DNA of 64,000 nucleotides, from contig JBBSAJ010000009.1 of NCBI GenBank assembly GCA_038252405.1, positions 3,670 to 67,669 on the forward strand, read 5' to 3'. The DNA is from Actinomycetes bacterium. GTDB lineage: Bacteria; Actinomycetota; Actinomycetes; Prado026. Below, one piece after another: positions 4,355-37,701 of this stretch (position 1 is the stretch's first letter; the number at the start of each line of letters is the position of its first letter). The position numbers were made by a program, and so were the translations under genes. Below the pieces are notes generated by a model. That model had not been told where the DNA came from, ran no database searches, and worked only from the letters and a program-made list of their open reading frames with translations.

Positions 4355-5611
4355 GTGACCCCCGAGGAGACGCTGTCCTGCGACGTGCTCGTGGTCGGCG
4401 CCGGACCCTCGGGATCGGCGGCGGCCGCCTGGCTGGCGCGCGCCGGCGTCGACGTCCTGCTCGTCGACGCGGCCACCTTCCCTCGGGACAAGCCCTGCGG
4501 CGACGGGCTCACCCCCCGGGCGATCGCTGAGCTGGAGGCGCTCGGGCTGGACGGCTGGCTGGACGGCCGGGTCCGCAGCTGGGGGCTGCGGGCGGACGGC
4601 TTCGGGCAGTCGCTGTACCTGCCGTGGCCGGGGGGCAGCCTGCCCCGCTACGGTGCGGCGGCACCGCGGCTCGAGCTGGACGCGCGGGTGCTCGGCGTGG
4701 CCACCGGCAGCGGCGCCCGGCTGCTGGAGAACGCTCGGGCCGTCGACGTGTCCATGGCCGGGGGACGGGTCGAGCAGGTGATCTTCCGCGACGGCTCGGG
4801 CGCCTACCCGGTGACCTGCCGTCGGCTGGTGGTCGCCGACGGCGCCCGTTCGCAGCTGGGCCGCCTGCTCGGCCGGGAGTGGCACCAGGACACGGCGTAC
4901 GGAGTGGCGGTCCGTGCCTACGCCAGCAGCGGGCGGTCCGACGACCCGTGGATCTCCTCGCACCTGGAGCTGCGCGGCGAGCGGGACGAGGTGCTCTCCG
5001 GATACGGCTGGGTGTTCCCGTTGGGGGAGGGCCAGGTCAACATCGGGGTGGGCACGCTGGCCACCGACCGGCACCCCGCCGACGTGAACCTGCGCCGGCT
5101 GCTGAACCAGTACACGGCCGAGCGGCGCGACGACTGGCAGCTGGACGGCCCGGTGCGTGCGCCGTGGTCGGCGCTGCTGCCCATGGGCGGGGCCGTGTCG
5201 AACGTGGCCGGCCCCAACTGGGTGCTGGTCGGGGACGCCGCCGGGTGCGTGAACCCGCTCAACGGCGAGGGCATCGACTACGGGCTGGAGACCGGCCGGC
5301 TGGCGGCCGAGGTGCTGGCGTCGTCGCGCGGCGGCGACCTGACCGAGGCCTGGCCGGGGCTGCTGCGCAGCAGCTATGGGCCGGCGTTCTCGGCTGCGCG
5401 CCGGCTCGCCGGGCTGCTGACCGTGCCGGGCTTCGTGCCGATGCTGGGGCCGGTGGGCATGCGGTCGCGGGCGCTCATGAAGCTCGCGCTGCGGGTCATG
5501 GGCAACTTCGTCACCGAGGAGGACACCGACGCGCTGGCCAGGGTGTGGCGGGCGGCGGGCCGGCTGTCCATCCGGCTGGACGAGCGCCCTCCCTTCTCCC
5601 CTCCCGCATGA
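4355..5611 (+). CDS. geranylgeranyl reductase family FAD-dependent oxidoreductase
   Basis: N-terminal FAD fold VLVVGAGPSGSAAAAWLA, GTG start after AGGAGG. The stop codon and the last residues (PPFSPPA) are encoded by MITE copy 2. Confidence 0.7.
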   Translation: MTPEETLSCDVLVVGAGPSGSAAAAWLARAGVDVLLVDAATFPRDKPCGDGLTPRAIAELEALGLDGWLDGRVRSWGLRADGFGQSLYLPWPGGSLPRYGAAAPRLELDARVLGVATGSGARLLENARAVDVSMAGGRVEQVIFRDGSGAYPVTCRRLVVADGARSQLGRLLGREWHQDTAYGVAVRAYASSGRSDDPWISSHLELRGERDEVLSGYGWVFPLGEGQVNIGVGTLATDRHPADVNLRRLLNQYTAERRDDWQLDGPVRAPWSALLPMGGAVSNVAGPNWVLVGDAAGCVNPLNGEGIDYGLETGRLAAEVLASSRGGDLTEAWPGLLRSSYGPAFSAARRLAGLLTVPGFVPMLGPVGMRSRALMKLALRVMGNFVTEEDTDALARVWRAAGRLSIRLDERPPFSPPA

Positions 5612-5658
5612 AGGTGCCCTTCTGTGCGTACTGCCGCACCAACCGCACCTTCATGAGG
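5598..5658. mobile_element. MITE-like element, copy 2 (solo left arm)
   Basis: CCCCTCCCGCATGAAGGTGCCCTTCTGTGCGTACTGCCGCACCAACCGCACCTTCATGAGG, with no partner arm. It lies between two convergent genes. Confidence 0.65.
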
Positions 5659-5680
5659 ACGGTGAGACGGACCGGGGCGC

Positions 5681-6373
5681 TCAGCCGCTTTCGAGCACCG
5701 GGTGCTCGCTGAGCCCGAGGACCCGCCAGCCACGGTCGGGGAAGCCCGCCGCGTCCGCCACGCGCGCGGAGGCCACGTTGTCCGGGGCGTGCAGGTAGGT
5801 GGGCACCGCGCCGAGGTCGAGCACGTGCCGGGCGGCCTGCGCGACGAGCCGCCGGGCCAGCCCCTGGCCGCGGCCGCGCGGCTCGGTGACGACGGCCAGC
5901 TCGTGCCCGGCCGCGTCGTGCCGCTTGATCCCGACGCCAGCCAGGTAGCGGTCGTCGTCGTCGAAGGCCATCAGCACCTGGCCACCGAACGGATGCAGCC
6001 ACTCGGGCACTCGCGGGTTGTCGACGTCCACCCAGACGCCTGCGTCGGGTAGGGAGGCCGGCTCGGTCGTCCAGCGGAAGACCCCGTGGTAGACGACGTG
6101 GCCCGGCTGGTCGACCAGGTCGGGCAGCGTCCGACGCACGTCGTCCAGGCTGGTGAGGCGGCCGTCGGCGAGCGCCGCGGCCACCGGTTCGGCGAACGCG
6201 GGCGGGACGCCGATCACCGCCTGCCCCCGCGGGTCCTGCACGCCGGTGACCGGGTGCGGCTGGCCGTCCCAGCCGGGCGCACTGTTACGCGGGTTGCCGA
6301 CGATCGTGAGGGGACCGGACGGCGGCCACCGGCCGACCCAGCCGGCCAGGTGCTCGGCCAGCCGCCCCGGCAC
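5681..6373 (-). CDS. GNAT family N-acetyltransferase (C-terminal GNAT domain)
   Basis: The lower half of track ORF 5681..7438. Candidate starts are GTG 6373 and GTG 6385; ATG 6415 lies inside the MITE arm. The upper part of that long ORF is antisense to corA and is spurious. Confidence 0.55.
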   Translation of the reverse strand: MPGRLAEHLAGWVGRWPPSGPLTIVGNPRNSAPGWDGQPHPVTGVQDPRGQAVIGVPPAFAEPVAAALADGRLTSLDDVRRTLPDLVDQPGHVVYHGVFRWTTEPASLPDAGVWVDVDNPRVPEWLHPFGGQVLMAFDDDDRYLAGVGIKRHDAAGHELAVVTEPRGRGQGLARRLVAQAARHVLDLGAVPTYLHAPDNVASARVADAAGFPDRGWRVLGLSEHPVLESG

Positions 6374-6532: not shown

Positions 6533-7525
6533 GTGGGCGAGCCGCGGGAGCAGGGGGCGCGGACCCGGCTGTACCGGAGCGGGGTGCTGGCCGGGGAGAA
6601 CTTCGCAGTCGAGCAGATCAGCGAGTACCTGGCCGAGCCGGACACGGTGGTGTGGGTCGACCTGTGCGCGCCGGACGACGCCATCGTCGCGCTGGTGGCC
6701 GACGAGCTCAACCTGCACGACCTGGCCGTGGCCGACGCGGTGGCCCCCCTGCAGCGGCCCAAGCTCGACCGGTACGCCAACCACGCGTTCCTGAACGTCT
6801 ACGCGGTGAAGCTGGACCGGGTGACCGGGCGGCTGGCGCAGGCCGAGCTGTCGGCGTTCATCACGCCGAAGGCGCTGGTCACGGTCCGCAAGGACCCGGC
6901 GTTCGACATGGACGGCGTGGTGGAGCGATGGGACCAGTCTCCGGACCTGGCCCTCCACGGCGTCGGGTACCTGCTGCACGGGCTGCTGGACCACGTCGTC
7001 GACGGCCACTTCGAGGTCGTGCAGAGCCTGGACGAGGAGATCGAGAAGCTCGAGGACCTGCTGTTCGACGACGGGTCGCGCTCGAACGACGTGCAGCGGC
7101 GCAGTTTCGAGCTGCGCAAGAGCCTGGTCACCCTGCGCCGGGTGGTGCTGCCGATGCGCGAGGTGGTCAACTCGCTGATGCGGCGCGACCTCAAGGTGAT
7201 CAACGAGCCGATGGTCCCGTACTTCCAGGACGTCTACGACCATGTGCTGCGAGCGACCGAGTGGACCGAGTCGCTGCGGGACATGGTCACCACGATCCTG
7301 GAGACCAACCTGACCATCCAGGGGAACCGGCTCAACGTCATCACCAAGAAGGTCACCAGCTGGGCGGCGATCATCGCGGTCCCCACGGCGATCACCGGGT
7401 TCTACGGGCAGAACCTGCCTTACCCGGGGTTCGCGCACCAGAGCGGCTTCGTCGTCTCCAGCCTGCTCATCGTGGGGATGTCCGTCGGCCTGTACGTCAC
7501 CTTCCGGCGCAAGGACTGGCTGTAG
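6533..7525 (+). CDS. corA: CorA-family divalent cation transporter (GQN variant of the GMN motif)
   Basis: 330 aa with two C-terminal transmembrane helices and YGQNLPYPG at the CorA signature position. Confidence 0.75.
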   Translation: MGEPREQGARTRLYRSGVLAGENFAVEQISEYLAEPDTVVWVDLCAPDDAIVALVADELNLHDLAVADAVAPLQRPKLDRYANHAFLNVYAVKLDRVTGRLAQAELSAFITPKALVTVRKDPAFDMDGVVERWDQSPDLALHGVGYLLHGLLDHVVDGHFEVVQSLDEEIEKLEDLLFDDGSRSNDVQRRSFELRKSLVTLRRVVLPMREVVNSLMRRDLKVINEPMVPYFQDVYDHVLRATEWTESLRDMVTTILETNLTIQGNRLNVITKKVTSWAAIIAVPTAITGFYGQNLPYPGFAHQSGFVVSSLLIVGMSVGLYVTFRRKDWL

Positions 7526-10609: not shown

Positions 10610-12901
10610 GTGAAGAGGCTGTGCAGCCACTTCGAAATGCTGCTGTTCGCGCTCTCGCTGCTGCTGCTGGCCGCGGGAGCGCTGGCACACGCCGTCAGGG
10701 CGGCCCGGCTGGGCGACGCGTGCTGGACGGCCGACGCCACGCTCGGACTGGTCGTCTCGACGGGGTGGATGCTGGCCAGCCTGTGGCGCCACCAGCTCGG
10801 CGTCGACCTGATCGCCGTCCTGGCGCTGGCCGGGGCGCTGGCCGTGGGGGAGCCGTTCGCCGGTGCGGTCATCACCGTGATGCTGGCGAGCGGACGGCTG
10901 CTGGAGGCCAGGGCCGAGGCCAGGGCGCGCCGGGACCTCAGCCTGCTGGTCGAGCGGGCGCCGCGCACGGCGCGGCGGCTGCGGGACGGGACCATCACCG
11001 AGGTCCCCGTCGAGGATGTCGCCAGGGGGGACCAGGTCGTCGTCGGCCCCGGCGAGGTCGTCCCGGTGGACGGCCGGCTGCAGCAGCCGGGCGTGCTCGA
11101 CGAGTCGATGCTCACCGGCGAGTCGCTCCCGGTGGAGCGCGAGCCCGGCGAGGAGGTCCGCAGCGGTGCGGTCAATGCCGGGCCACCGGTCATCCTGGTG
11201 GCGACCGCGGTGGCCGCCGACTCGACCTACGCCCACATCGTGCGCCTGGTCGAGCAGGCCCAGGCGTCCTCAGCGCCGTTCGTGCGCACGGCCGACCGGT
11301 TCGCGGTCGCCTTCGTGCCGTTCACCCTGCTGCTCGCCGGGGCCGCCTGGCTGGCCGCGGCGGACCCGGTCCGGGCGGTCGCCGTCCTCGTCGTCGCGAC
11401 GCCGTGCCCGCTGCTGCTCGCGGCCCCGATCGCGATCATGTCCGGACTGTCCCAGGCCGCCCGGGTCGGGGTCGTGGTCAAGGGCGGCGGCGCGCTCGAG
11501 CGGCTGGCCGCCGGGCGGGTGCTGCTGTTCGACAAGACCGGGACGCTGACCCGCGGGCAGCCGGTCGTCGTCGAGGTGGTGGCGCCCGACGCGGCGACCC
11601 CGGCGGCTGAGCTGCTCCGGGTGGCGGCCTCGCTCGACCAGGTGTCTCCGCACCTGCTGGCCGGGGCCATCGTCGCCGCGGCCGGCGCGCGGGAGCTGCC
11701 CCTCGTCCTGCCGGAGCAGGTGGTCGAGCGGGCCGGCTACGGCATCGAGGGCGTCGTCGAGGGCCGCCGGGTGCGGTTGGGCAAGGTGAGCTGGGTGCTG
11801 CCGGGGGAGCTGCCCGGCTGGGCCCGCCAGGTGCGGCGCCGGGCCGCGCTGGACGGCTCGCTCACGGTGTTCGCCGCGCTGGAGGGGCAGCCGGCCGGAG
11901 CGTTCGTGCTCGAGGACCCGATCCGAGGCGACGCCCCACGGATGGTCCGGGCGTTGCGGCAGGCGGGGATCACCCGCACGGTGCTCGTCACCGGCGACCG
12001 CGCGGACGTGGCCGAGTCGGTTGGCCGGATGGTGGGCGTGGACGCCGTCCAGGCCGACCGAGACCCCGCGGACAAGTTGGCCGTCGTCGTGGCGGAGCGC
12101 GTGCACGGGCCGACGATCATGGTGGGGGACGGCGTCAACGACGCTCCGGCGCTGGCCGCCGCCGACGTGGGCGTCGCGCTGGCGGCGCGGGGGGCCACGG
12201 CATCGTCCGAGGCGGCCGATGTCGTCCTCACGGTCGACCGCATCGACGGGCTGGCCGACGCGATCCTGATCGCGCGTCGCTCCCGACGGATCGCACTGGA
12301 GAGCGTGCTGCTGGGCATGGGGCTGTCCCTCGTGGCCATGATCGCGGCGGCGCTGGGCCACCTCCCGCCGGCCGCCGGGGCGCTGCTGCAGGAGGTCATC
12401 GACGTGCTGGCGATCCTCAGCGCGCTGCGCGCGGTGCTGCCGGGGCAGCGGCACACGGTACGGATGGCGGTGGCCGACGCGGAGCTGACCGCCCGGCTGC
12501 AGGCCGAGCACCTGGCCACCCGGCCGATCGTGGAGGGGCTGCGGGACGTCGCCGACTCACTCGACCGCAGGGCAGGCGACCTCGCGCCGGTGCACGCTCT
12601 GATGGCCAGGCTGGACGCCGAACTGCTGCCGCACGAGTACGCCGAGGAGGCCGAGCTGGTGCCGCTGATGGCCCGGCTGCTCGGCGGGCCGGACCCGGTG
12701 GGCTCGCTCAGTCGCACCCACGCCGAGATCGACCACCAGGTGGCGCGGCTGCGCCGGCTGCTGGACGAGCTCGGGGACGCCGAGCCCGAACCGGAGGACG
12801 TGCTGGAGCTGCGCCGGGTGCTGTACGGGCTCTATGGCGTCCTGCGGCTGCACAACGCGCAGGAGGAGGAGAGCGTCTTCAGCCTGCTCGCCGATGCCTG
12901 A
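10610..12901 (+). CDS. P1B-5-type heavy-metal P-type ATPase with a C-terminal hemerythrin-like (HHE) domain
   Basis: DKTGTLT, TGD and GDGVNDAPAL motifs, with TPCP in the TM4-equivalent helix instead of CPC. There is no N-terminal metal-binding domain. The C-terminal ~150 aa carry H...HxxxE repeats. Confidence 0.75.
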   Translation: MKRLCSHFEMLLFALSLLLLAAGALAHAVRAARLGDACWTADATLGLVVSTGWMLASLWRHQLGVDLIAVLALAGALAVGEPFAGAVITVMLASGRLLEARAEARARRDLSLLVERAPRTARRLRDGTITEVPVEDVARGDQVVVGPGEVVPVDGRLQQPGVLDESMLTGESLPVEREPGEEVRSGAVNAGPPVILVATAVAADSTYAHIVRLVEQAQASSAPFVRTADRFAVAFVPFTLLLAGAAWLAAADPVRAVAVLVVATPCPLLLAAPIAIMSGLSQAARVGVVVKGGGALERLAAGRVLLFDKTGTLTRGQPVVVEVVAPDAATPAAELLRVAASLDQVSPHLLAGAIVAAAGARELPLVLPEQVVERAGYGIEGVVEGRRVRLGKVSWVLPGELPGWARQVRRRAALDGSLTVFAALEGQPAGAFVLEDPIRGDAPRMVRALRQAGITRTVLVTGDRADVAESVGRMVGVDAVQADRDPADKLAVVVAERVHGPTIMVGDGVNDAPALAAADVGVALAARGATASSEAADVVLTVDRIDGLADAILIARRSRRIALESVLLGMGLSLVAMIAAALGHLPPAAGALLQEVIDVLAILSALRAVLPGQRHTVRMAVADAELTARLQAEHLATRPIVEGLRDVADSLDRRAGDLAPVHALMARLDAELLPHEYAEEAELVPLMARLLGGPDPVGSLSRTHAEIDHQVARLRRLLDELGDAEPEPEDVLELRRVLYGLYGVLRLHNAQEEESVFSLLADA

Positions 12902-17841: not shown

Positions 17842-18996
17842 ATGCCGACAGCGAGCGCACGCACCGGAGACCAGGTCGTTCTCGACGTGAGTGGCCTTCA
17901 GTCGCTGATCGACATCCTGCTCGCCGACGGCCGGACCGTGGTCGGCCCCACCGTGCGCGACGGCGCCGTCACCTATGCCGCGATCGAGAGCATCGAGGCG
18001 CTGCCGCGTGGGGTCGGCGACGAGCAGGACGCCGGCCACTACCGGCTGCGCGAGCGGGGCGACGGCGCCCTGTTCGGCTACGCCAGCGGCGCCCAGTCGT
18101 TCAAGCCCTGGCTGTTCCCGGCCCGGCAGCTGCTCTGGAGCGGGCAGCGCACGGCCGACGGCTTCACCATCGAACCCGCTGACACGACGCCACCGCGGCT
18201 GGCCCTGCTCGGGGTCCGCGGCTGCGACCTGCGGGCGATCGCCGTCCACGACCGGGTGCTCGGCTCGGCCGACCGGCCGGCCGCCGACGCCCACTACACG
18301 GCGGCCCGCGCAGACCTGCTGGTCGTCGCGGTGGCCTGCGCCGAGCCCTCCGGCACCTGCTTCTGCGCGTCGATGGGCACCGGTCCGCACCCCGGCGAGG
18401 GCGCCGACCTCGTGCTCACCGAGCTGGACGTCGGAACCGACCACCGCTTCCTCGTCGAGGTGGTCACCGAGCGCGGTGCCGCCGTCCTGGCCGCCGGTGT
18501 CCCTGTGCGGGGGGCCACCGACGGCGACCGCAGTGCGGCCGCGGCCGTCGTGGCCGACGCCACCGACCGGATGGGCCGCCAGCTTGACACCGACGGCCTG
18601 CGCGACCTGCTCTACGACCAGGCCGAGTCCCGGCAATGGGACGAGGTCGCGAGCCGTTGCCTGTCCTGCACCAACTGCACGCTGGTCTGCCCGACCTGCT
18701 TCTGCACGAGCGTGCGCGACGTCTCGGACCTGTCCGGCGAGAAGGCTGAGCGGTGGCGGGTCTGGGACTCCTGCTTCACCGGGGGCTTCTCCTACATCCA
18801 CGGCGGCAGCGTGCGCGAGACGCCGCGCGCCCGGTACCGGCAGTGGATGACCCACAAGCTGGGCGCCTGGCAGGACCAGTTCGGCTCGTCCGGGTGCGTG
18901 GGCTGCGGCCGCTGCATCGCCTGGTGCCCGGCCGCCATCGACATCACTGCGGAGGCCGCGGTCCTGCGGTCGGCCGCGCAGCCACGGGAGGGCTGA
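17842..18996 (+). CDS. hyhB: group 3b [NiFe]-hydrogenase beta subunit (AsrA-like iron-sulfur protein, two 4Fe-4S clusters)
   Basis: ATG 17842 follows GGAGGGCGAGGAGAG. Cys clusters CLSCTNCTLVCPTCFC and CVGCGRCIAWCP are present. Confidence 0.75.
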   Translation: MPTASARTGDQVVLDVSGLQSLIDILLADGRTVVGPTVRDGAVTYAAIESIEALPRGVGDEQDAGHYRLRERGDGALFGYASGAQSFKPWLFPARQLLWSGQRTADGFTIEPADTTPPRLALLGVRGCDLRAIAVHDRVLGSADRPAADAHYTAARADLLVVAVACAEPSGTCFCASMGTGPHPGEGADLVLTELDVGTDHRFLVEVVTERGAAVLAAGVPVRGATDGDRSAAAAVVADATDRMGRQLDTDGLRDLLYDQAESRQWDEVASRCLSCTNCTLVCPTCFCTSVRDVSDLSGEKAERWRVWDSCFTGGFSYIHGGSVRETPRARYRQWMTHKLGAWQDQFGSSGCVGCGRCIAWCPAAIDITAEAAVLRSAAQPREG

Positions 18997-18998
18997 CC

Positions 18999-19472
18999 AT
19001 GCGCACCATCGAGCAGCTGCTGCCCGACCACCCGTTCTTCACCGGGCTGGAGGAGCCGGAGCTCCGGCTGGTCTCCGGGTGCGCGACCAACGTGCACTTT
19101 CACCCCGGCGAGTTCCTGTTCAAGCAGGGCGGGTCCGCCGAGAGGTTCTTCATCGTGCGGCACGGGTCGGTCGCCATCGAGGTGCACAGTGCCGAGCGCG
19201 GCACTGTCGTCATCGACACCGTGGGGGACGGCGAGGTCATCGGCTTCTCCTGGCTGGTACCCCCGTACCGCTACGTGTTCGACGGCCGCGCGGTGGTGGA
19301 GACGAGCGCGGTCGCGTTCGACGGCACCTGCCTGCGCGGCAAGTGCGAGGACGACCCCCGGCTCGGCTACGCGCTCATGCAGCGGGTGTCCTCGGTGATG
19401 TACGAGCGCATGCAGGCCGCCCGGGTCCGGATGCTCGACATGTACGGGTCCCCCCGTGACCGCGCCCACTGA
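18999..19472 (+). CDS. cyclic nucleotide-binding domain protein (no DNA-binding domain) embedded in the hydrogenase operon
   Basis: 158 aa with a cNMP-binding fold (GEFLFKQGGSAERFFIVRHGSVAI). ATG 18999 follows GGGAGG. Confidence 0.65.
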   Translation: MRTIEQLLPDHPFFTGLEEPELRLVSGCATNVHFHPGEFLFKQGGSAERFFIVRHGSVAIEVHSAERGTVVIDTVGDGEVIGFSWLVPPYRYVFDGRAVVETSAVAFDGTCLRGKCEDDPRLGYALMQRVSSVMYERMQAARVRMLDMYGSPRDRAH

Positions 19473-20317: not shown

Positions 20318-21160
20318 ATGACAACCACCGCCGGCACCGGTTACAGCGGCTACGCCGGGCCCACCGACCACCGACCCACCCTGGCGGTCTGGAAGTTCGC
20401 CTCGTGCGACGGCTGCCAGCTGTCGGTGCTGGACTGCGAGGACGAGCTGCTCGCCATCGCCGACGCCGTGCACATCGCCTACTTCCCTGAGGCCACCCGG
20501 GCGGTGGTCGCCGGGCCGTACGACCTGTCCCTCGTCGAGGGGTCGATCACCACGGTCGGGGACGCCGAGCGGATCCAGGAGATCCGCAAGGTCTCCAGGA
20601 CGCTCATCACCATCGGGGCCTGCGCCACCAGCGGCGGCATCCAGGCGCTGCGCAACTTCGCCGATGTCGAGCAGTACCGCTCGATCGTGTACGCGCACCC
20701 GTCCTACATCTCCACCCTGGAGCGGTCCACCCCGATCGTCGACCACGTCCAGGTGGACGCCGAGCTGCGCGGCTGCCCGGTCGACAAGGGCCAGCTGCTC
20801 GAGCTGCTGGCCGCCTTCCTGCAGGACCGGCCGGCCCGGCTGGTCACCGACAGCGTGTGCACCGAGTGCAAGCGCCGCGGCGCCGTCTGCGTGGCAGTGG
20901 CCCACGGCACGCCCTGCCTCGGCCCGGTCACCCACGGTGGGTGCGGGGCGCTGTGCCCGGCCTTCAACCGGGGCTGCTTCGGCTGCTTCGGTCCGGTGCG
21001 CTCGGCCAACACGGCCTCGCTCGCCGACCGGCTGGTCGACCTGGGCATGCCCCAGCGGGACGTCGTCCGGTTCTTCCGCACCTTCAACGCCGGGGCCGAG
21101 GCCTTCAAGGACGAGAGCACCAGGCACGAGCAGCGCGAGGCGGAGGGGATCAGGCCGTGA
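20318..21160 (+). CDS. hyhS: group 3b [NiFe]-hydrogenase small (delta) subunit
   Basis: Cys ligands for the proximal, medial and distal clusters. RBS GGGAGG precedes ATG 20318. Confidence 0.75.
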
Positions 21161-22464
21161 CGCACAAGCTGACCGGCGACGGCCGGGTGCTGTCCGTCGA
21201 CACGCTGGCCCGGGTCGAGGGTGAGGGCGCGATGCACGTGCAGGTGCACGGCGGTGAGGTGACCGACGTCCAGCTGCAGATCTTCGAGCCGCCGCGGTTC
21301 TTCGAGGCGTTCCTGCGCGGCCGGGCGTACACCGAGCCCCCGGACATCACCGCGCGCATCTGCGGGATCTGCCCGGTGGCCTACCAGATGTCCGCCTGCA
21401 ACGCGATCGAGCAGGCCTGCGGGGTGGTCGTCCCCGAGGAGATCCGCCAGCTGCGCCGGCTGCTGTACTGCGGTGAGTGGATCGAGAGCCACGCCCTGCA
21501 CGTGTACCTGCTGCACGCCCCCGACTTCCTCGGCTACCCGGGTGTCGTGGAGATGGCCCGCGACTACCGTGAGCTGGTCGAGCAGGGGCTGCGGCTGAAG
21601 AAGGCCGGCAACCAGCTGCTCGAGCTGATCGGCGGCCGGGCGATCCACCCGGTGAACGTGAAGATCGGGGGCTTCTACCGGCTGCCCACGCCGGCCGAGC
21701 TGCGCGACTTCCGCCCCGTCCTCGAGCAGGCGCTGGCCGACTCGATCGCGACCGTCCAGGCGGTGGCCGGGTTCGAGACACCGGACTTCGAGCAGCCGTA
21801 CACCTATCTGTCACTGCGCCGCGAGGACGGCTACCCGCTGGAGTCCGGCTCGGTCGTCACGAGCACGGGGCTCGCGTTCCCGGTCGAGCGGTTCGACGAG
21901 CACGTGGCCGAGCAGCACGTCGAGCACTCGAACGCGCTGCACGCCTGGCTGCGCGGCTCCGGCCCGTACGTCGTCGGCCCGCTGGCCCGGTACTCGCTCA
22001 ACCACGACGTGCTCACCGACGTGGCCAAGGAGGCCGCGGCGGCGGCCGGGCTCGGCGACACCTGCCGCAACCCGTTCCGGTCCATCGTGGTGCGGGCCGT
22101 CGAGCTGGTGGAGGCCTGCCAGGTCGCGCTGCAGGTCGTGGACAGCTGGCGGGGCGCGCCGGCCGCGGCGGTGCCGGTCGAGCCGCGGGCGGGGGTCGGC
22201 TACGGCGGCACCGAGGCGCCGCGCGGGCTGCTCATCCACCGCTACCGGCTGGCCGAGGACGGCACCATCGAGGACGCCGTCATCATCCCGCCGACGTCAC
22301 AGAACCAGCCGAGCATCGAGGCGGACCTGCGCGGCTTCGTGCAGGACCGGCTGGACCTGCCCGACGACGAGCTGACCCGCCAGTGCGAGCAGGCCATCCG
22401 CAACTACGACCCCTGCATCTCCTGTGCGACCCACTTCCTCGACCTGCACGTGGACCGCGCATGA
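21157..22464 (+). CDS. hyhL: group 3b [NiFe]-hydrogenase large (alpha) subunit
   Basis: N-terminal L1 motif RICGICP and C-terminal L2 motif [13 protein letters not shown] overlap with the small-subunit gene. Confidence 0.8.
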
Positions 22465-22934
22465 CCCTCGTCATCGGTGTCGGCAACCCCGACCGCGGCG
22501 ACGACGGCGTCGGCCCGGCGGTGGCGGCCCGGGTGGCTGCGCTGGGGCTGTCCGGCGTCCGGGTGGCGCCGACCGTCGACCCGGCTCGGCTGATCGACGC
22601 GTGGGACGGCGAGTCGGACGTGGTCGTCGTCGACGCCGTCCGGGTGGGCCTCGGCGACGGCCCCCGCGTGGTCTCGCTGCGGGTCGACGAGCAGCCGCTG
22701 CCGGGCTGGGCCGCCTGCGGAGGCACCCACGCGTTCAGCGTGGCCTCGGCGATCGAGCTGTCCAGGGCACTGGGCCGGCTGCCCGAGCACCTCGTGGTCG
22801 TCGGGGTGGCCGGCTGCGACTTCAGCACCGGCCACGGGCTGTCGTCGGACGTGCGGGGCCGGATGGATGCCGCCATCGAGTCCGTACGGGCCGCCGTCCA
22901 CGGGGCCCACCCGACCCAGGGCGGGCCGGGCTGA
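22461..22934 (+). CDS. hydrogenase maturation endopeptidase (HyaD/HoxW family)
   Basis: ATGA overlap, and the N-terminal motif LVIGVGNPDRGDDGVG. Confidence 0.75.
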   Translation: MTLVIGVGNPDRGDDGVGPAVAARVAALGLSGVRVAPTVDPARLIDAWDGESDVVVVDAVRVGLGDGPRVVSLRVDEQPLPGWAACGGTHAFSVASAIELSRALGRLPEHLVVVGVAGCDFSTGHGLSSDVRGRMDAAIESVRAAVHGAHPTQGGPG

Positions 22935-23164
22935 TGTGCCTGGGCCGGATGTGCCGCGTCGTCGAGGTGCCCGGCGACGGGACGGTGGTCGTCGACGACG
23001 CCGGCCGGTCGCACCGGGTCGCCGCGGTGGCGCTGGCCCAGCCGCCCGTGGTGGGGGAGTGGCTGCTGGTCTACGCCGGGATCGCCCTCGAGCGGCTCGG
23101 CGAGCAGGAGGTGCGCGACACGCTCGCGCTGCGGAACGGCGAACGAGGAGAGGGACCGACATGA
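22934..23164 (+). CDS. hypC: HypC/HupF-family hydrogenase assembly chaperone
   Basis: 76 aa starting MCLG. ATGA overlap with the protease stop. Confidence 0.6.
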   Translation: MCLGRMCRVVEVPGDGTVVVDDAGRSHRVAAVALAQPPVVGEWLLVYAGIALERLGEQEVRDTLALRNGERGEGPT

Positions 23165-24078
23165 CGCGTCGAGCCGGGGTCGTCCTGGCGCTGGTCGCCG
23201 CCGCAGTCAGCGGCGTGGCGGTGTTCATCAACGCCTACGGGGTCAAGGCCGTGGGCGATGCCACCGTCTACACCACCGCCAAGAACCTGGTGGCGGCACT
23301 GCTGCTGGGCGCGGTCTTCGCCGTGTCGGTCGGCCGGCGTGAGCCGTCGGCTCGGCGGGCGCCGCGGACACCGCTGACCCGTGCGCAGCTGGCCGGGCTG
23401 GTTGCCATGGGCATCGGCGGCAGCGTGCCGTTCGTGCTGTTCTTCGAGGGGCTGCTGCGTGCGTCGTCGGTGCACGCCGCGTTCCTGCACAAGACGCTCG
23501 TGCTGTGGGTGGCCCTGCTCGCCGTGCCGCTGCTGAGGGAGCGGCTGACCTGGGCGCACGGGGTCGCGATCGGGCTGCTGCTGGTCGGGCAGACCGTGCT
23601 CGTGGGCGGCGTCGCCGAGTCGTTCGGCCCCGGCGAGGCGATGATCCTCGCGGCGACCATGCTCTGGGCCCTGGAGACCGTGCTGGCCAAGTGGCTGCTC
23701 GGCGGGCTGTCCTCGTGGACCGTCGGCGTGACCCGGATGGGCCTGGGCTCGCTCGTCCTGCTCGCCTGGGTCGGGGTGACCGGCCGGTTGGGCGCCCTGG
23801 TCGCCCTGGACGCCGCCCAGTGGGGCTGGGTGCTGCTCACGGGGGCAGTGCTGGCCACCTACGTCGGGCTGTGGCTGGCCGCGCTGGCCCGGGCGCAGGC
23901 CGTCGACGTGACCGCCGTCCTGGTGCTGGCCGCCGTCATCACCGCCGTCCTCGCGGCGCTGGTCAACGGGACGACGTTGCAGCCGGTCGGGCTGCTGCTC
24001 GTGCTGGCCGGTGGCGCGCTGGCCGCCGCCCGGCTGCGCCCGGCCGCCGGCGTCGCGGTCGACACGGCTGGGGCCTGA
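23161..24078 (+). CDS. DMT superfamily (EamA-like) transporter, 10 transmembrane segments
   Basis: ATGA overlap with hypC. Polytopic membrane protein. Confidence 0.6.
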   Translation: MTRRAGVVLALVAAAVSGVAVFINAYGVKAVGDATVYTTAKNLVAALLLGAVFAVSVGRREPSARRAPRTPLTRAQLAGLVAMGIGGSVPFVLFFEGLLRASSVHAAFLHKTLVLWVALLAVPLLRERLTWAHGVAIGLLLVGQTVLVGGVAESFGPGEAMILAATMLWALETVLAKWLLGGLSSWTVGVTRMGLGSLVLLAWVGVTGRLGALVALDAAQWGWVLLTGAVLATYVGLWLAALARAQAVDVTAVLVLAAVITAVLAALVNGTTLQPVGLLLVLAGGALAAARLRPAAGVAVDTAGA

Positions 24079-24084
24079 GCGGCC

Positions 24085-24849
24085 ATGGAGTCCGGCCCGC
24101 TGCTGTTCGCGCGTTTCGCCTACCCGCCGAACGCACTGGGCTACTGCGGTCCGGACGGCTCCGGCGAGCTGCTCGAGCGGACGGCGTCCGCGGACGGCGG
24201 CCAGGACATGCGCCGGCTGGCCCGCGGGTTCGAGGGCGCCTGGCCGTACCTGGAGCTGATCGCGCACGAGAACGGTCTGGGCGACCCACTCGACCCGCGC
24301 GTGGTGGAGGCGTACTGGATCGGCAACGGGCTGCTGGACCGGGTCCGCGGCCCGGCCTTCCGCGGCTCGCTCGAGGACCGGTTCCGGCCACGGGTGGGGC
24401 GTGCGGTGGGCCACGTGCTGGACCCGGTGGCCGGCGGCGGCGTGCCGCACCACGCGTTCCACGTGTTCGGGGTGTTCCCCTGGGTCGGGCTGCTGCGCGG
24501 CGGTGTTGTCGACGAGCCGCTGCGGGTGCTCGACCGGTGCCGGATCCGGTGGGCCCGGGTCGACGCGGTCGTCGGTGACCGCGCGGTGGTCCGGTCCCGG
24601 CCGCTGGAGTGGCGCGACGGGCGGCTGCTGCTCGGCGCGCCCGCGGTGGAGGAGGTCACGGTGGCCGAGGCGGGCCGCTCCCTGGCCGCGGGGCTGGCGC
24701 CCGGGGACCTGGTGGCCTGCCACTGGGACTGGGTGTGCACCCGGATCACCGTGGCCCAGGCCACCCAGCTGCGCCATCGGACCGCCCAGGTTCTCGCCGC
24801 CGTCCAGCCGGTCAGGGTGACGACGGCGTATACATCGTCGTCACCCTGA
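24085..24849 (+). CDS. conserved hypothetical protein (MESGPLLFARFAYPPNALGYCGPD...), a type I recall as associated with hydrogenase clusters in Actinobacteria
   Basis: 254-aa ORF. Its last codons and TGA stop lie inside palindrome P1. Confidence 0.4.
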   Translation: MESGPLLFARFAYPPNALGYCGPDGSGELLERTASADGGQDMRRLARGFEGAWPYLELIAHENGLGDPLDPRVVEAYWIGNGLLDRVRGPAFRGSLEDRFRPRVGRAVGHVLDPVAGGGVPHHAFHVFGVFPWVGLLRGGVVDEPLRVLDRCRIRWARVDAVVGDRAVVRSRPLEWRDGRLLLGAPAVEEVTVAEAGRSLAAGLAPGDLVACHWDWVCTRITVAQATQLRHRTAQVLAAVQPVRVTTAYTSSSP

Positions 24850-35154: not shown

Positions 35155-37218
35155 CTACGGCACGCCCATGGTCGCGGCGTGCGTGCCGAGCAGGCCGTAC
35201 GGCGCGAGCAGGTCCATGCCGTCGGGCGTGTTCAGGTAGCCGGCCCCGGAGCCGGCCACCCCGGTGTGCCCGTACTGCCACACCACCGTGTTCGTGGCCG
35301 GGTCGATCACGATGACCCGGTCGTTCCTGTCGTCGTTGACCATGACCATGCCGTTGGGCAGCGGCAGCGCGAGTGAGGGGTGCGACAGCCGCTTGGCTCC
35401 GGCGGGCTTGTACCGCCACAGCGGCCGGCCGGACCGGTCGAAGATCAGCACCTGGCCCGGCGTGGAGTAGTCGACGGTGAGGTACCGGCCCGCGCTGATC
35501 TCGTTGGTGTCGGACGGGTAGGCGACGTCGGGGACGTGCACCGACCAGCTCGACGTGCCGTCCAGGCCCAGCTCGGAGACGTACGCCCCGCCGATCTCGG
35601 TGACCAGGTAGTGGCCGTTGGCCATCGGGAAGGCACCGTTCGGGCTGCTGTAGCGGGTGGGTGGGGCGTGCCGACAGCTGCCCGGCAGGCCGTAGGACCG
35701 CTCCGCGGTGTGCGCTCCGGGGGCGACCAGCAGCACCCGGCAGTTCTTGATGTCGGCGATCAGCAGCTGCCCGTCCGGCAGCATCATCGCGTCGTCGGGG
35801 TTGTTCAGGTGGTTCGGTCCCGACCCGGGCGTGCCCGGGGTGCCGTAGCGGTAGACGATCCGGTGGGTCGCGATGTCGATGACCGAGACGACGTAGTCGT
35901 CCTCCTCGGTCGCGATGATCTCGCGGCCATCGGGGCTGAAGAACGCGTCGTCCGGGATCAGGAAGGTCTGCCCGGGGGCCAGGTCACCCGGCCGGGGGAA
36001 CTGCCAGCGGAGCCGGCCCTGCGGGTCGACGATGATCACCCGGTTGTTCGCCTTGTCGGCGATGAGGATCGGCCCGGGCAGCACCGACGGGTCGGAGCCG
36101 GCGGCCAGGTGGCCAGGGCCGGTCGCGGCCGGCAGCCAGTCGGGAGAGCCGACCGAGGCGCCGGCCGCGGAACCGGTCGTGGTACCGGTTGAGGACGACG
36201 CCACGGGAGCCGGAGCCGGCTCGACCAGCCGCAGGGTGACGACCGACGCCAGGGTGGTCGGGGTCTCCCCGCCCAGCAGGTAGCCGACGCCGTCGACGAC
36301 CGACGCGCCCGAGTCGGAGACCCCCTGCGGCAGCCGGCCGGCCGAGGTGACGGTGCGGTGCGCGGGGTCGAAGGCGAGCACGTCGGCGCTGCGCTGCTCG
36401 CCCTGGCCGGTGCGCCCACCGGCCAGGTAGATCCGGTCGCCGAGGGCCAGGGCGGAGGCGTGGGCGACCGGGTGCGGCAGGTGGGCGACCACCGTGGCGG
36501 CCCCGGTCGACACGTCGACCAGCTGGACGTCGTCCACCGTCGTGCCGTTGTGCTCACCGCCGAACACCCACAGCTGGTTGCCGCTGACCGCCACCGCGGG
36601 GTAGCGGACCGTCACGGGCAGGGTGGCCGTGACCGTGAAGTGCACGCCGTCCGTCGTGCGCAGCACGGCCGGCAGGTCGTGGCTGCCGTCGTACCCGCCG
36701 ACCACGTACGCGGCGCCGTCCACGGTGGCTGCGGCCAGGTCAGCCCGCGGCTGGGGCAGCCGGCCGACCACGCTGCCGGTGCCCCCGGCGACGACCGACT
36801 GCACGGACGCCGTGGGCCCCGAGGTCCCGCCGCCGAAGACGAACCGGTGGCTCCCCACGGTCGACCCGCCGGCGTCGTGGCCGGCCTCGGCGAGCTGGCC
36901 CGGCTCGCTGGCCCGGCCGGTCACCGGGTTGACCGCGTAGACGCTCGCGGTGGAGTGGTTGGCCGCGTCGAGGCCCCCCGCGACGAGCAGCAGGTGGCCG
37001 TCCGGCTGGACGACGGAGCGGGACACGGCCGCGGGCAGCTGCCAGTCGGCCGTGGCCACCTGCAGGACGAGCGGCCGGGCCGCCGTCGTGGCCGCCGGCC
37101 GGCTGGCTGACCGGCTTCCGGTCGTCGTCGGCGTCGAGGACCCGGCGCACGAGGTGAGCAGCAGCGCCGCGCCGACTGCGAGAGCGGGGCCGGCGGGGCG
37201 GAGGGAGGGCACGCGCAC
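35155..37218 (-). CDS. secreted lipoprotein with N-terminal Kelch/beta-propeller repeats and a C-terminal NHL/arylsulfotransferase-like beta-propeller
   Basis: A GTG at 37218 gives the signal peptide VRVPSLRPAGPALAVGAALLLTSC (lipobox LTSC). The protein shows repeated GG/YVVGG/LLGG propeller blades. Confidence 0.5.
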   Translation of the reverse strand: MRVPSLRPAGPALAVGAALLLTSCAGSSTPTTTGSRSASRPAATTAARPLVLQVATADWQLPAAVSRSVVQPDGHLLLVAGGLDAANHSTASVYAVNPVTGRASEPGQLAEAGHDAGGSTVGSHRFVFGGGTSGPTASVQSVVAGGTGSVVGRLPQPRADLAAATVDGAAYVVGGYDGSHDLPAVLRTTDGVHFTVTATLPVTVRYPAVAVSGNQLWVFGGEHNGTTVDDVQLVDVSTGAATVVAHLPHPVAHASALALGDRIYLAGGRTGQGEQRSADVLAFDPAHRTVTSAGRLPQGVSDSGASVVDGVGYLLGGETPTTLASVVTLRLVEPAPAPVASSSTGTTTGSAAGASVGSPDWLPAATGPGHLAAGSDPSVLPGPILIADKANNRVIIVDPQGRLRWQFPRPGDLAPGQTFLIPDDAFFSPDGREIIATEEDDYVVSVIDIATHRIVYRYGTPGTPGSGPNHLNNPDDAMMLPDGQLLIADIKNCRVLLVAPGAHTAERSYGLPGSCRHAPPTRYSSPNGAFPMANGHYLVTEIGGAYVSELGLDGTSSWSVHVPDVAYPSDTNEISAGRYLTVDYSTPGQVLIFDRSGRPLWRYKPAGAKRLSHPSLALPLPNGMVMVNDDRNDRVIVIDPATNTVVWQYGHTGVAGSGAGYLNTPDGMDLLAPYGLLGTHAATMGVP

Positions 37219-37320
37219 GAGCCAAGAGTGTCGCCGTCGGCGGGTCAAGGCCAGGTAAACCGGCGACCTCACCGGCGCGTCGCCCTGCAGGGCGACCGCT
37301 CCGGCGCCGATACGTCCGGC

Positions 37321-37701
37321 ATGAGCCTGTTGCGACCCGTCGGACCGGTGCTGGTCGCCGGCTGCCTGCCCCTCCTCGCCGGCTGTGGGGGGAACCCCGC
37401 CCAGCAGGTGGCGGACACCGTCGTGTCCCAGGTGTCGACGGCCCACCGGACCGAGGTCGTGGCGGCGCTGGCGGGGGATGCGCAGGCGCTGGCCGGCTAC
37501 CAGGCGACGAACGGCACGCTGCCCGCCGGCCAGGCCGAGTTCGCGGCCATCCCGGGGGTGGAGCGGCCGGGGGTGAGCGTCACCTACACGGCATCCGGCA
37601 GTGGCTGGTGCCTCGTCGGGACCTCCACCGCCCAGCCGCCGTCCACCGTGGTGTGGACCCAGAACGGGCCGCAGCCGGCCGGGGTGACGCGCTGTCCCTG
37701 A
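37321..37701 (+). CDS. small lipoprotein (126 aa)
   Basis: N-terminus MSLLRPVGPVLVAGCLPLLAGCGG with lipobox LAGC. Confidence 0.5.
   Translation: MSLLRPVGPVLVAGCLPLLAGCGGNPAQQVADTVVSQVSTAHRTEVVAALAGDAQALAGYQATNGTLPAGQAEFAAIPGVERPGVSVTYTASGSGWCLVGTSTAQPPSTVVWTQNGPQPAGVTRCP

Follow-up and report, generated by a model that had tools for sequence, protein, structure and literature searches.

The hydrogenase locus and its cyclic-nucleotide-binding gene

This study concerns a small gene in a stretch of 64,000 nucleotides (the window) from an Actinomycetes bacterium of the lineage Prado026 (assembly GCA_038252405.1, contig JBBSAJ010000009.1), where it lies between the genes for the beta and gamma subunits of a [NiFe]-hydrogenase and encodes a stand-alone protein with a cyclic-nucleotide-binding (CNB) domain. 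The open reading frame starts at an ATG (18999-19001) and stops at a TGA (19470-19472), giving 157 codons plus the stop, one residue fewer than the 158 of the original prediction, which had been made from the letters of the window. Only 2 nt separate the stop codon of the beta gene (TGA 18994-18996) from this ATG. The Pfam and NCBIfam matches of the genes on both sides confirm the predicted position between beta and gamma, and the coordinates of all the genes are collected in Table 1.

Table 1. Coordinates of the CNB gene, its start signal and the hydrogenase genes of the window, with family members found away from hydrogenase genes
Feature	Position	Strand	Description and basis
CNB gene	18999..19472	+	157-aa stand-alone CNB (CAP-effector) domain protein; Pfam, AlphaFold2, Foldseek, family alignments
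Shine-Dalgarno-like GGGAGGG	18986..18992	+	6 nt 5' of the CNB ATG, within the 3' end of the beta gene; read from sequence
Beta subunit gene, first in operon	17842..18996	+	384 aa, 4Fe-4S dicluster, AsrA/HydB/ShyB-like; Pfam Fer4_22 E=7.7e-33; NCBIfam ShyB/AsrA/HydB
Gamma subunit gene	19456 (or 19513)..20316	+	FAD/NAD(P)-binding plus [2Fe-2S], AsrB/HydG-like; Pfam NAD_binding_1 and DHODB_Fe-S_bind; NCBIfam hydrogenase gamma/AsrB
Delta (small) subunit gene	20318..21160	+	ATG 1 nt past the gamma stop; Pfam Oxidored_q6 E=1.2e-22; NCBIfam ShyD/HydD
Alpha (large, [NiFe]) subunit gene	21157..22464	+	NCBIfam ShyA/HydA E=1.5e-85; RICGIC and DPCISCATH nickel-binding motifs
Hydrogenase maturation endopeptidase gene	22461..22934	+	ATG overlaps the alpha stop (ATGA); weak HycI Pfam match of the sibling-contig gene
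Orphan loci L018, L028, L040, L057, L061, L064, L067, L075, L082	about 7001-7460 in each locus		match to the CNB family

The encoded protein has a single recognizable domain, as had been predicted. Residues 32-117 match Pfam PF00027 (cNMP_binding) at profile positions 2-87 of 89, with E=2.5e-12 and a score of 47 bits (cut-off 27.5), and the Pfam scan of the protein gave this domain alone, with no helix-turn-helix (HTH) or other DNA-binding domain. When E. coli CRP is aligned to the profile of the family, the alignment ends at CRP residue 144, ahead of the HTH domain, and the C-terminus of the window protein (residue 157) falls at the point where the CRP hinge begins. An AlphaFold2 model (mean predicted local distance difference test score, pLDDT, 89.4; predicted template modelling score, pTM, 0.82) shows the element order of the CNB fold, namely an N-terminal helix, an eight-stranded beta-barrel, a short helix of the phosphate-binding cassette (PBC) and the B and C helices, of which the C-terminal one is long (residues 120-149, 30 residues). 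A Foldseek search with this model reached probability 1.00 for 3MDP, GlxR, CRP, PKG and CNG domains, with 3MDP as the top match followed by GlxR and CRP. Both the Pfam score, which exceeds the curated threshold, and the order of the fold elements place the protein in the cNMP_binding family and the CNB fold.

The surrounding operon appears to be of the group-3b type of [NiFe]-hydrogenases, judged from its best NCBIfam and Protein Data Bank (PDB) matches, its motifs and its set of subunits. The alpha subunit is closest to HydA/ShyA and carries the RxCGxC and DPCxxCxxH motifs, and it is accompanied by an AsrA-like beta, an AsrB-like gamma and a small delta subunit. The best PDB match of the alpha subunit is that of P. 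furiosus sulfhydrogenase I (SHI; 9nez_D, E=7.5e-76), and that of the beta subunit is sulfhydrogenase 1 beta (9nez_B, E=7.9e-31). The best NCBIfam matches of the operon are ShyA/HydA, ShyB, HydG/ShyC and ShyD, every one of them under its equivalog cut-off, and the operon therefore represents a bacterial relative rather than an orthologue of the archaeal enzyme. The start assigned to the beta gene agrees with the 384-aa gene call of sibling contigs. The gamma gene has two candidate starts, both of which are called on sibling contigs: GTG 19456 gives 286 aa and a 17-nt overlap with the CNB gene, while ATG 19513 gives 267 aa and a 40-nt gap, and homology to other gamma subunits mostly begins at about residue 15-20 of the long form. 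The overlap claimed in the original prediction thus holds for the GTG start and is lost with the ATG start. The junctions of the operon read, in order, 2 nt, the 17-nt overlap or 40-nt gap, 1 nt, GTGA (the alpha GTG overlapping the delta stop) and ATGA, and a scan of the sequence gave no internal promoter- or terminator-like site in the operon that could uncouple the CNB gene. The endopeptidase slot is annotated as "hydrogenase maturation protease" in Burkholderia and Rhodococcus, and hypC is the next gene after it.

A widespread family with a fixed place in the operon

The CNB gene belongs to a large family. A word-indexed search returned 498 homologues, and among the 120 listed the identity to the window protein is 57-99%, with nearly all of them 150-205 aa long and consisting of the CNB domain only. 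A profile search against 1.84 billion cluster representatives gave 656 clusters at 50% identity (E<=1e-30), and a scan of one genome per species gave at least 588 confirmed stretches. With 498 close homologues, a conserved synteny and a conservation equal to that of the beta subunit, the open reading frame is a real gene, far beyond what chance would produce. Neither is it a mis-called N-terminal extension or part of the gamma subunit, a possibility raised along with the original prediction, because its reading frame differs from that of gamma and hundreds of genomes have it as a gene of its own; it also has its own Shine-Dalgarno sequence and ATG.

Gene order was surveyed in the closest 80 of the at least 588 loci by mapping the five proteins of the window (CNB, beta, gamma, delta and alpha) onto each. 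The query of the genome scan was the narrower of two alignments, A1, the broad alignment A2 having no conserved stretch, and since A1 served as the query the 80 loci are biased to relatives at least 49% identical. Because the survey is anchored on the CNB gene, its proportion of about 89% gives how often the gene lies in the operon and not the share of 3b operons that have it. The order beta-CNB-gamma-delta-alpha on one strand is found in 71 of the 80 loci, from about nine phyla; the taxa named in the record titles are Actinomycetota, Terriglobia/Acidobacteriaceae (Acidobacteriota), Anaerolineae (Chloroflexota), Binatia, Ignavibacteria, Gemmatimonadaceae (Gemmatimonadota), Zixiibacteriota (Zixibacteria), Chthonomonadaceae (Armatimonadota) and Nitrospirota. 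The identical gene order is seen in annotated Burkholderia and Rhodococcus plasmids and, by a tblastn map, in an unannotated record of S. rimosus. The Rhodococcus protein is only about 31% identical to that of the window, yet it occupies the identical slot. The CNB gene is thus a normal element of group-3b-type operons in a very large bacterial clade, so that its earlier description as an unusual insert was overstated, and the worry that it might not be conserved in orthologous operons is answered by the 71 loci that keep the slot.

The spacing of the genes is equally regular. The distance from the beta stop to the CNB start lies between -29 and +28 nt in all measurable loci but three, and these three outliers stem from broken beta matches. 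Such junctions fit translational coupling. In the 59 complete loci the mean identity to the window is 56% for the CNB protein, 57% for beta and 60% for gamma, and divergence follows that of alpha with a Spearman rho of 0.71 for the CNB protein and 0.65 for gamma, although these loci were picked by CNB similarity, which compresses the range of CNB identities.

Fusions, relocated copies and plasmids

Two natural fusions join the CNB domain to a neighbouring subunit. The protein P0247 (468 aa) consists of the CNB domain followed by a complete gamma subunit; its cluster of 11 members includes ten variants of full length, which come from separate JGI/ENA assemblies and one of which is on a 96-kb contig. 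P0177 (542 aa) consists of a complete beta subunit followed by the CNB domain and is found at full length in two assemblies. Because full-length copies recur in separate assemblies, both fusions are real. Two further candidates were rejected. P0161 (773 aa), an apparent beta-CNB-gamma protein, and P0082 (239 aa) are frameshift read-throughs with out-of-frame low-complexity stretches; they run through the overlapping junctions of beta, CNB and gamma genes, and counts of fusions in this family need the sequences to be read. We also observed tandem proteins of the CNB subfamily with two, three or five copies of the domain (P0121, 840 aa; P0122-P0126, about 300-350 aa; P0137, 532 aa), and in P0122 the motif GWSWLFPP is present in both copies.

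One case of relocation was found in Streptomyces NBC_01562. On its plasmid NZ_CP109357 the beta gene adjoins the gamma gene with no insert, and a member of the CNB family lies 12 kb off. The relocated copy shares 64% identity with the one embedded in the S. rimosus operon, and the alpha subunits of the two are 71% identical; the gene has moved out of the operon and has been kept nearby. Among the plasmids of PLSDB, a small and taxonomically narrow set for this purpose (n=15), all 15 that carry a 3b-type alpha gene also carry a member of the CNB family within 20 kb. Twelve of these 15 members are in or next to the operon, five by gene order and seven by match coordinates only, and the other three are at 10-18 kb.

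Comparison with HoxI and other known systems

A CNB protein that serves a soluble hydrogenase has a precedent in HoxI, which has reportedly been known since the work of Burgdorf in 2005. In the group 3d soluble NAD+-reducing hydrogenase of Cupriavidus necator H16 (HoxFUYHI2), HoxI is a CNB-domain homodimer on the HoxFU diaphorase and is described as an NADPH activation site (PMC3702609), and it is readily lost in purification, at high salt or alkaline pH (PMC3189943). Its gene lies at 84835-85338 of the plasmid pHG1 (L001:8836-9339). Like the window protein, HoxI is a stand-alone CNB domain of similar size (167 versus 157 aa) with no HTH, and its gene also belongs to the operon that encodes the subunits of a soluble NAD(P)-linked [NiFe]-hydrogenase. 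However, the two are only 21% identical across 94 residues, the 95% probability given by hhalign reflects the fold only, and HoxI is not the top match of the window protein on pHG1, the best tblastn match there being a Crp/Fnr regulator. HoxI retains the G-E of the PBC and lacks the family signature GxSW..PP..W. Their partners differ as well, since HoxFU is a NuoEF-like diaphorase of the Complex-I type with FMN, while the partners in the window are an AsrA-like beta and an AsrB-like gamma subunit (FAD/NAD(P), [2Fe-2S]), and hoxI follows hoxW at the end of its operon whereas the CNB gene stands between two structural genes. On identity, pHG1 match rank and PBC signatures we reject orthology; by these sequence comparisons the CNB protein is an analogue of HoxI, and the two families probably represent independent recruitments of the CNB fold. 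The name HoxI has nonetheless been given to the CNB gene in a group-3b cluster of a methanotroph (PMC12319191), and a CNB gene is listed in passing for the R. equi 3b cluster (PMC13332983). In the literature searched we found no functional study of a CNB protein of 3b operons, the gene being merely listed or named.

The best solved match of the window protein is 3MDP (E=1.1e-16), a structural-genomics entry for the putative cyclic nucleotide-binding protein Gmet_1532 of Geobacter metallireducens, which superposes on the model with template modelling (TM) scores of 0.77 and 0.91, a root-mean-square deviation of 2.0 A and 28% identity. It is likewise a stand-alone CNB domain and partly shares the altered PBC (G-V-S-S-L-I-K-P-Y-H-Y..ARA), but it lacks both signature Trp residues and the Cys residues described below. 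Proteins of the CRP/FNR family, such as E. coli CRP, M. tuberculosis CRP and C. glutamicum GlxR, share the effector fold with its beta-barrel, PBC helix and long dimerisation C-helix; in contrast to them, the window protein has no C-terminal HTH, and the cAMP-contact residues E72, R82 and S83 of CRP are not conserved. Trypanosome regulatory subunits of PKA have a CNB fold with altered phosphate-cassette residues and bind a ligand other than cAMP. These cAMP-independent subunits (PDB 6FTF) are among the fold matches of the window protein, but they are eukaryotic, have tandem domains and a kinase partner, and show no specific sequence relation to the CNB family.

The characterized group 3b enzymes, P. 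furiosus HydBGDA (PDB 9nez/9nf0) and M. smegmatis Hyd3/Hyh, match the window in their four structural subunits and in the order of these, and they too come with the endopeptidase. In the P. furiosus SHI structures the alpha and beta chains are named as sulfhydrogenase subunits, and by the chain names and the established literature this operon has no CNB gene between beta and gamma. The locus tags of M. smegmatis Hyd3 (MSMEG_3931-3927) run without a break, and the published table (PMC2799521) places no CNB gene between its beta and gamma genes.

A proposed accessory role at the beta-gamma module

The comparative evidence gives good support to a role of the CNB protein as a partner of the beta-gamma module, either accessory or regulatory, because its gene keeps its place across phyla, has junctions that fit tight translational coupling, is naturally fused to gamma and to beta, and has a precedent in HoxI. 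To this extent the earlier suggestion of an accessory subunit, or of a regulator acting on the diaphorase (beta-gamma) module, is supported. On balance, and by a small measure only, we favor the fuller proposal that the protein is a regular fifth component of bacterial group-3b-type operons, which binds beta-gamma and modulates the activity of the enzyme through a non-canonical cue. The protein would probably form a dimer by way of its long C-helix, like CRP and HoxI, would bind the electron-input module formed by beta and gamma (FeS/FAD/NAD(P)H), and would modulate the activity or activation state of the enzyme upon a small-molecule or redox cue.

Several points weigh against this proposal. 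The case for it is made from gene order, fusions and analogy. In nine of the 80 surveyed loci the family member, 52-59% identical, is an orphan that lacks any hydrogenase gene within 7 kb, and the neighbors of these nine copies differ between loci, save in two near-identical genomes, so that no shared partner emerges; the protein can therefore exist away from the operon. The 3b enzymes studied to date, P. furiosus SHI and M. smegmatis Hyd3, are described as four-subunit enzymes, which indicates that the CNB protein is not needed for basic catalysis. Finally, an NADPH activation site like that of HoxI is less obviously needed here because the gamma subunit of 3b enzymes already uses NAD(P)H as its substrate.

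The four-subunit composition of the characterized enzymes also bears on the alternative that survives best, although we consider it unlikely, namely that the CNB protein is an assembly or maturation factor for beta-gamma, acting in FeS/FAD insertion or subunit docking, which is made stoichiometrically and is absent from the mature enzyme. The operon does contain the endopeptidase and HypC genes, and the ready loss of HoxI (PMC3189943) shows how a loosely bound partner can seem absent. However, the CNB gene stands among the structural genes, away from the maturation genes, which are at the 3' end, and stable covalent fusions to gamma and beta are unexpected for a factor that departs. Moreover, we know of no CNB domains that act as chaperones.

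The remodelled binding cassette and the nature of the cue

We examined the binding pocket by aligning the family profile to E. coli CRP and counting residues in 89 diverse representatives. In the window protein the segment equivalent to the PBC reads G82-F-S-W-L-V-P-P-Y-R-Y-V-F-D-G-R-A98. The glycine that opens the cassette (G82) is kept in 88 of the 89, and at the position of CRP Glu72, which contacts the ribose 2'-OH, 70 have Trp and the rest Leu, Val, Phe, Thr or Ala, with Phe in the window; Glu is not among the six commonest residues at this position, which together cover all 89. The Arg82-Ser83 clamp of CRP has no counterpart, since the aligned column holds H, Q, R, A, L or V and the Ser position is deleted. 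Near the clamp position, Arg91 is Arg in 61% and is replaced by K, T, H, M or I even in close homologues. Compared with the G-E-[LIV]..R-[ST]-A cassette of cAMP/cGMP receptors, G82 is kept, the Glu is replaced, and the R-[ST] pair is absent or variable. The family has instead a consensus of its own, G-x-S-W-L-x-P-P-Y-R-W-x-F-D-A-R-A, in which G-E has become G-W/F and which combines conserved Trp, Tyr and Pro residues with Arg97, Arg113 and Arg137. The core of its signature GxSW..PP..W (S84, W85, P89 and W92) is retained by the divergent copies of Rhodococcus and Streptomyces and by the two fusions, and in the alignment it is absent from CRP and HoxI.

These replacements bear directly on the idea of a genuine cAMP/cGMP receptor, which would bind its ligand in the usual pocket and switch the hydrogenase according to the level of the second messenger. 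The Pfam score above the threshold, the match of the fold to cAMP-bound CRP/GlxR and PKG domains, and the conservation of G82 and of Arg97-Ala98 (R87-A88 in CRP) speak for it. Against it, HMMER alignments to PKG end in the first half of the PBC, and ordinary cAMP/cGMP sensing is unlikely because the Glu is replaced by Trp or Phe and the Arg-Ser/Thr clamp is absent. We thus regard a second-messenger receptor as improbable, and with the pocket residues replaced, the cAMP/cGMP responsiveness suggested in the original prediction is not supported. The remodelled cassette leads more naturally to another ligand or to the use of the PBC surface as a protein interface. In the proposed regulation of the beta-gamma module, a nucleotide-type ligand of another kind, such as the NAD(P)H proposed for HoxI, or a protein-protein interface at the PBC surface would be likelier than canonical cAMP or cGMP.

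Another feature of the protein is a set of Cys and His residues. Cys28, His63, Cys111 and Cys116 are invariant in 30 close homologues, with a CLRGKC motif on the B-helix. They could form a thiol or metal site of a redox or O2 sensor with an FNR-like logic, which protects or inactivates the hydrogenase, and such a sensor could be combined with a regular fifth component at beta-gamma. The three Cys residues occur in 85%, 71% and 64% of the 89 representatives, respectively, and the operon is found in hypoxia-type neighborhoods with a hemerythrin-fused P-type ATPase, USP and CBS proteins. However, all three Cys residues are present together in only 41 of the 89, and neither the operon-embedded copies of Rhodococcus and Streptomyces nor the two natural fusions have the Cys/His set. 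A redox-switch role can be at most lineage-specific, because the residues are absent from these Rhodococcus and Streptomyces copies. A lineage-specific redox or metal site is possible; as the general explanation of the family a thiol or metal sensor seems to us quite doubtful.

The least probable of the alternatives is a CRP/FNR paralogue without its DNA-binding domain that acts indirectly on transcription, by heterodimerising with or titrating full-length CRP/FNR proteins or by buffering a ligand, with feedback on hydrogenase expression: although the nearest solved folds after 3MDP are the CRP, GlxR and DNR effector domains including the dimerisation helix, and although orphan copies exist and the gene can work from an unlinked position, regulators seldom lie with overlapping codons between structural subunit genes across nine phyla, the fusions join redox subunits and not DNA-binding domains, and GxSW..PP..W is not common to CRP/FNR proteins.

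Genes in the neighborhood of the operon

The delta subunit is 280 aa long in the window and 277 aa in four sibling metagenome contigs with an identical CNB protein, a 9-nt difference inside the delta gene. Past the endopeptidase gene, the region 22934-24849 on the forward strand holds hypC, a transporter gene of the EamA family and a DUF6390 gene (24085-24849), which are kept in the four sibling contigs. No hypA, hypB, hypD, hypE or hypF was seen among the open reading frames of the window scanned, a scan that was not exhaustive, which suggests that the other maturation genes are located elsewhere.

The hydrogenase operon is preceded, at a distance of about 5 kb, by a gene for a P-type ATPase with a C-terminal hemerythrin domain (10610-12901, forward strand). 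The same ATPase-hemerythrin architecture is encoded directly upstream of the relocated CNB-family gene in Streptomyces NBC_01562 (L089:2186-4522, 4821-5297, 5294-5971), where the stop codon of the CNB-family gene overlaps a CBS-BON gene. This neighborhood may represent a recurrent hypoxia- or redox-type setting. The reverse strand encodes, at 35155-37446, a protein of 762 aa that has Kelch repeats and a weak PQQ_2/BamB-like match and is unrelated to the CNB gene.

Significance

Group 3b hydrogenases are widespread in bacteria of soils and sediments, where they are thought to shed excess reductant as H2 in hypoxia, and they are of interest for the regeneration of NAD(P)H. To our knowledge, all mechanistic and structural knowledge of this group comes from four-subunit enzymes, those of Pyrococcus, Thermococcus and M. 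smegmatis. The gene described here could already be seen in public annotation and is mentioned briefly in papers, and HoxI was known as a functional analogue. What appears to be new, from the comparisons made here, is a distinct and very widespread CNB family with a rebuilt binding cassette, tied to an electron-input module other than that of HoxI. The family offers a clean case of a CNB domain with a rebuilt phosphate cassette, marked by GxSW..PP..W.

A stronger version of the proposal, which we put forward only tentatively and hold to be clearly less probable than a modulating fifth component as such, is that bacterial 3b enzymes are truly five-component enzymes. The CNB protein would then be a dimeric sensor of the CNB fold that has lost the binding of cyclic nucleotides, with a Trp-rich pocket for another effector, be it NAD(P)H, a further nucleotide or a redox signal, and would allosterically gate the flow of electrons between NAD(P)H and the [NiFe] site. 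If this is true, soluble hydrogenases would have recruited the CNB fold twice and independently, HoxI being the other case, and the archaeal and mycobacterial four-subunit models would miss a regulatory layer in hundreds of soil and sediment bacteria. The case of HoxI illustrates that such a subunit is easily lost in purification. If most bacterial 3b enzymes carry an extra sensor-like partner, the control of their activity in vivo, their cofactor preference or activation, and their heterologous expression may be misjudged from four-subunit models.

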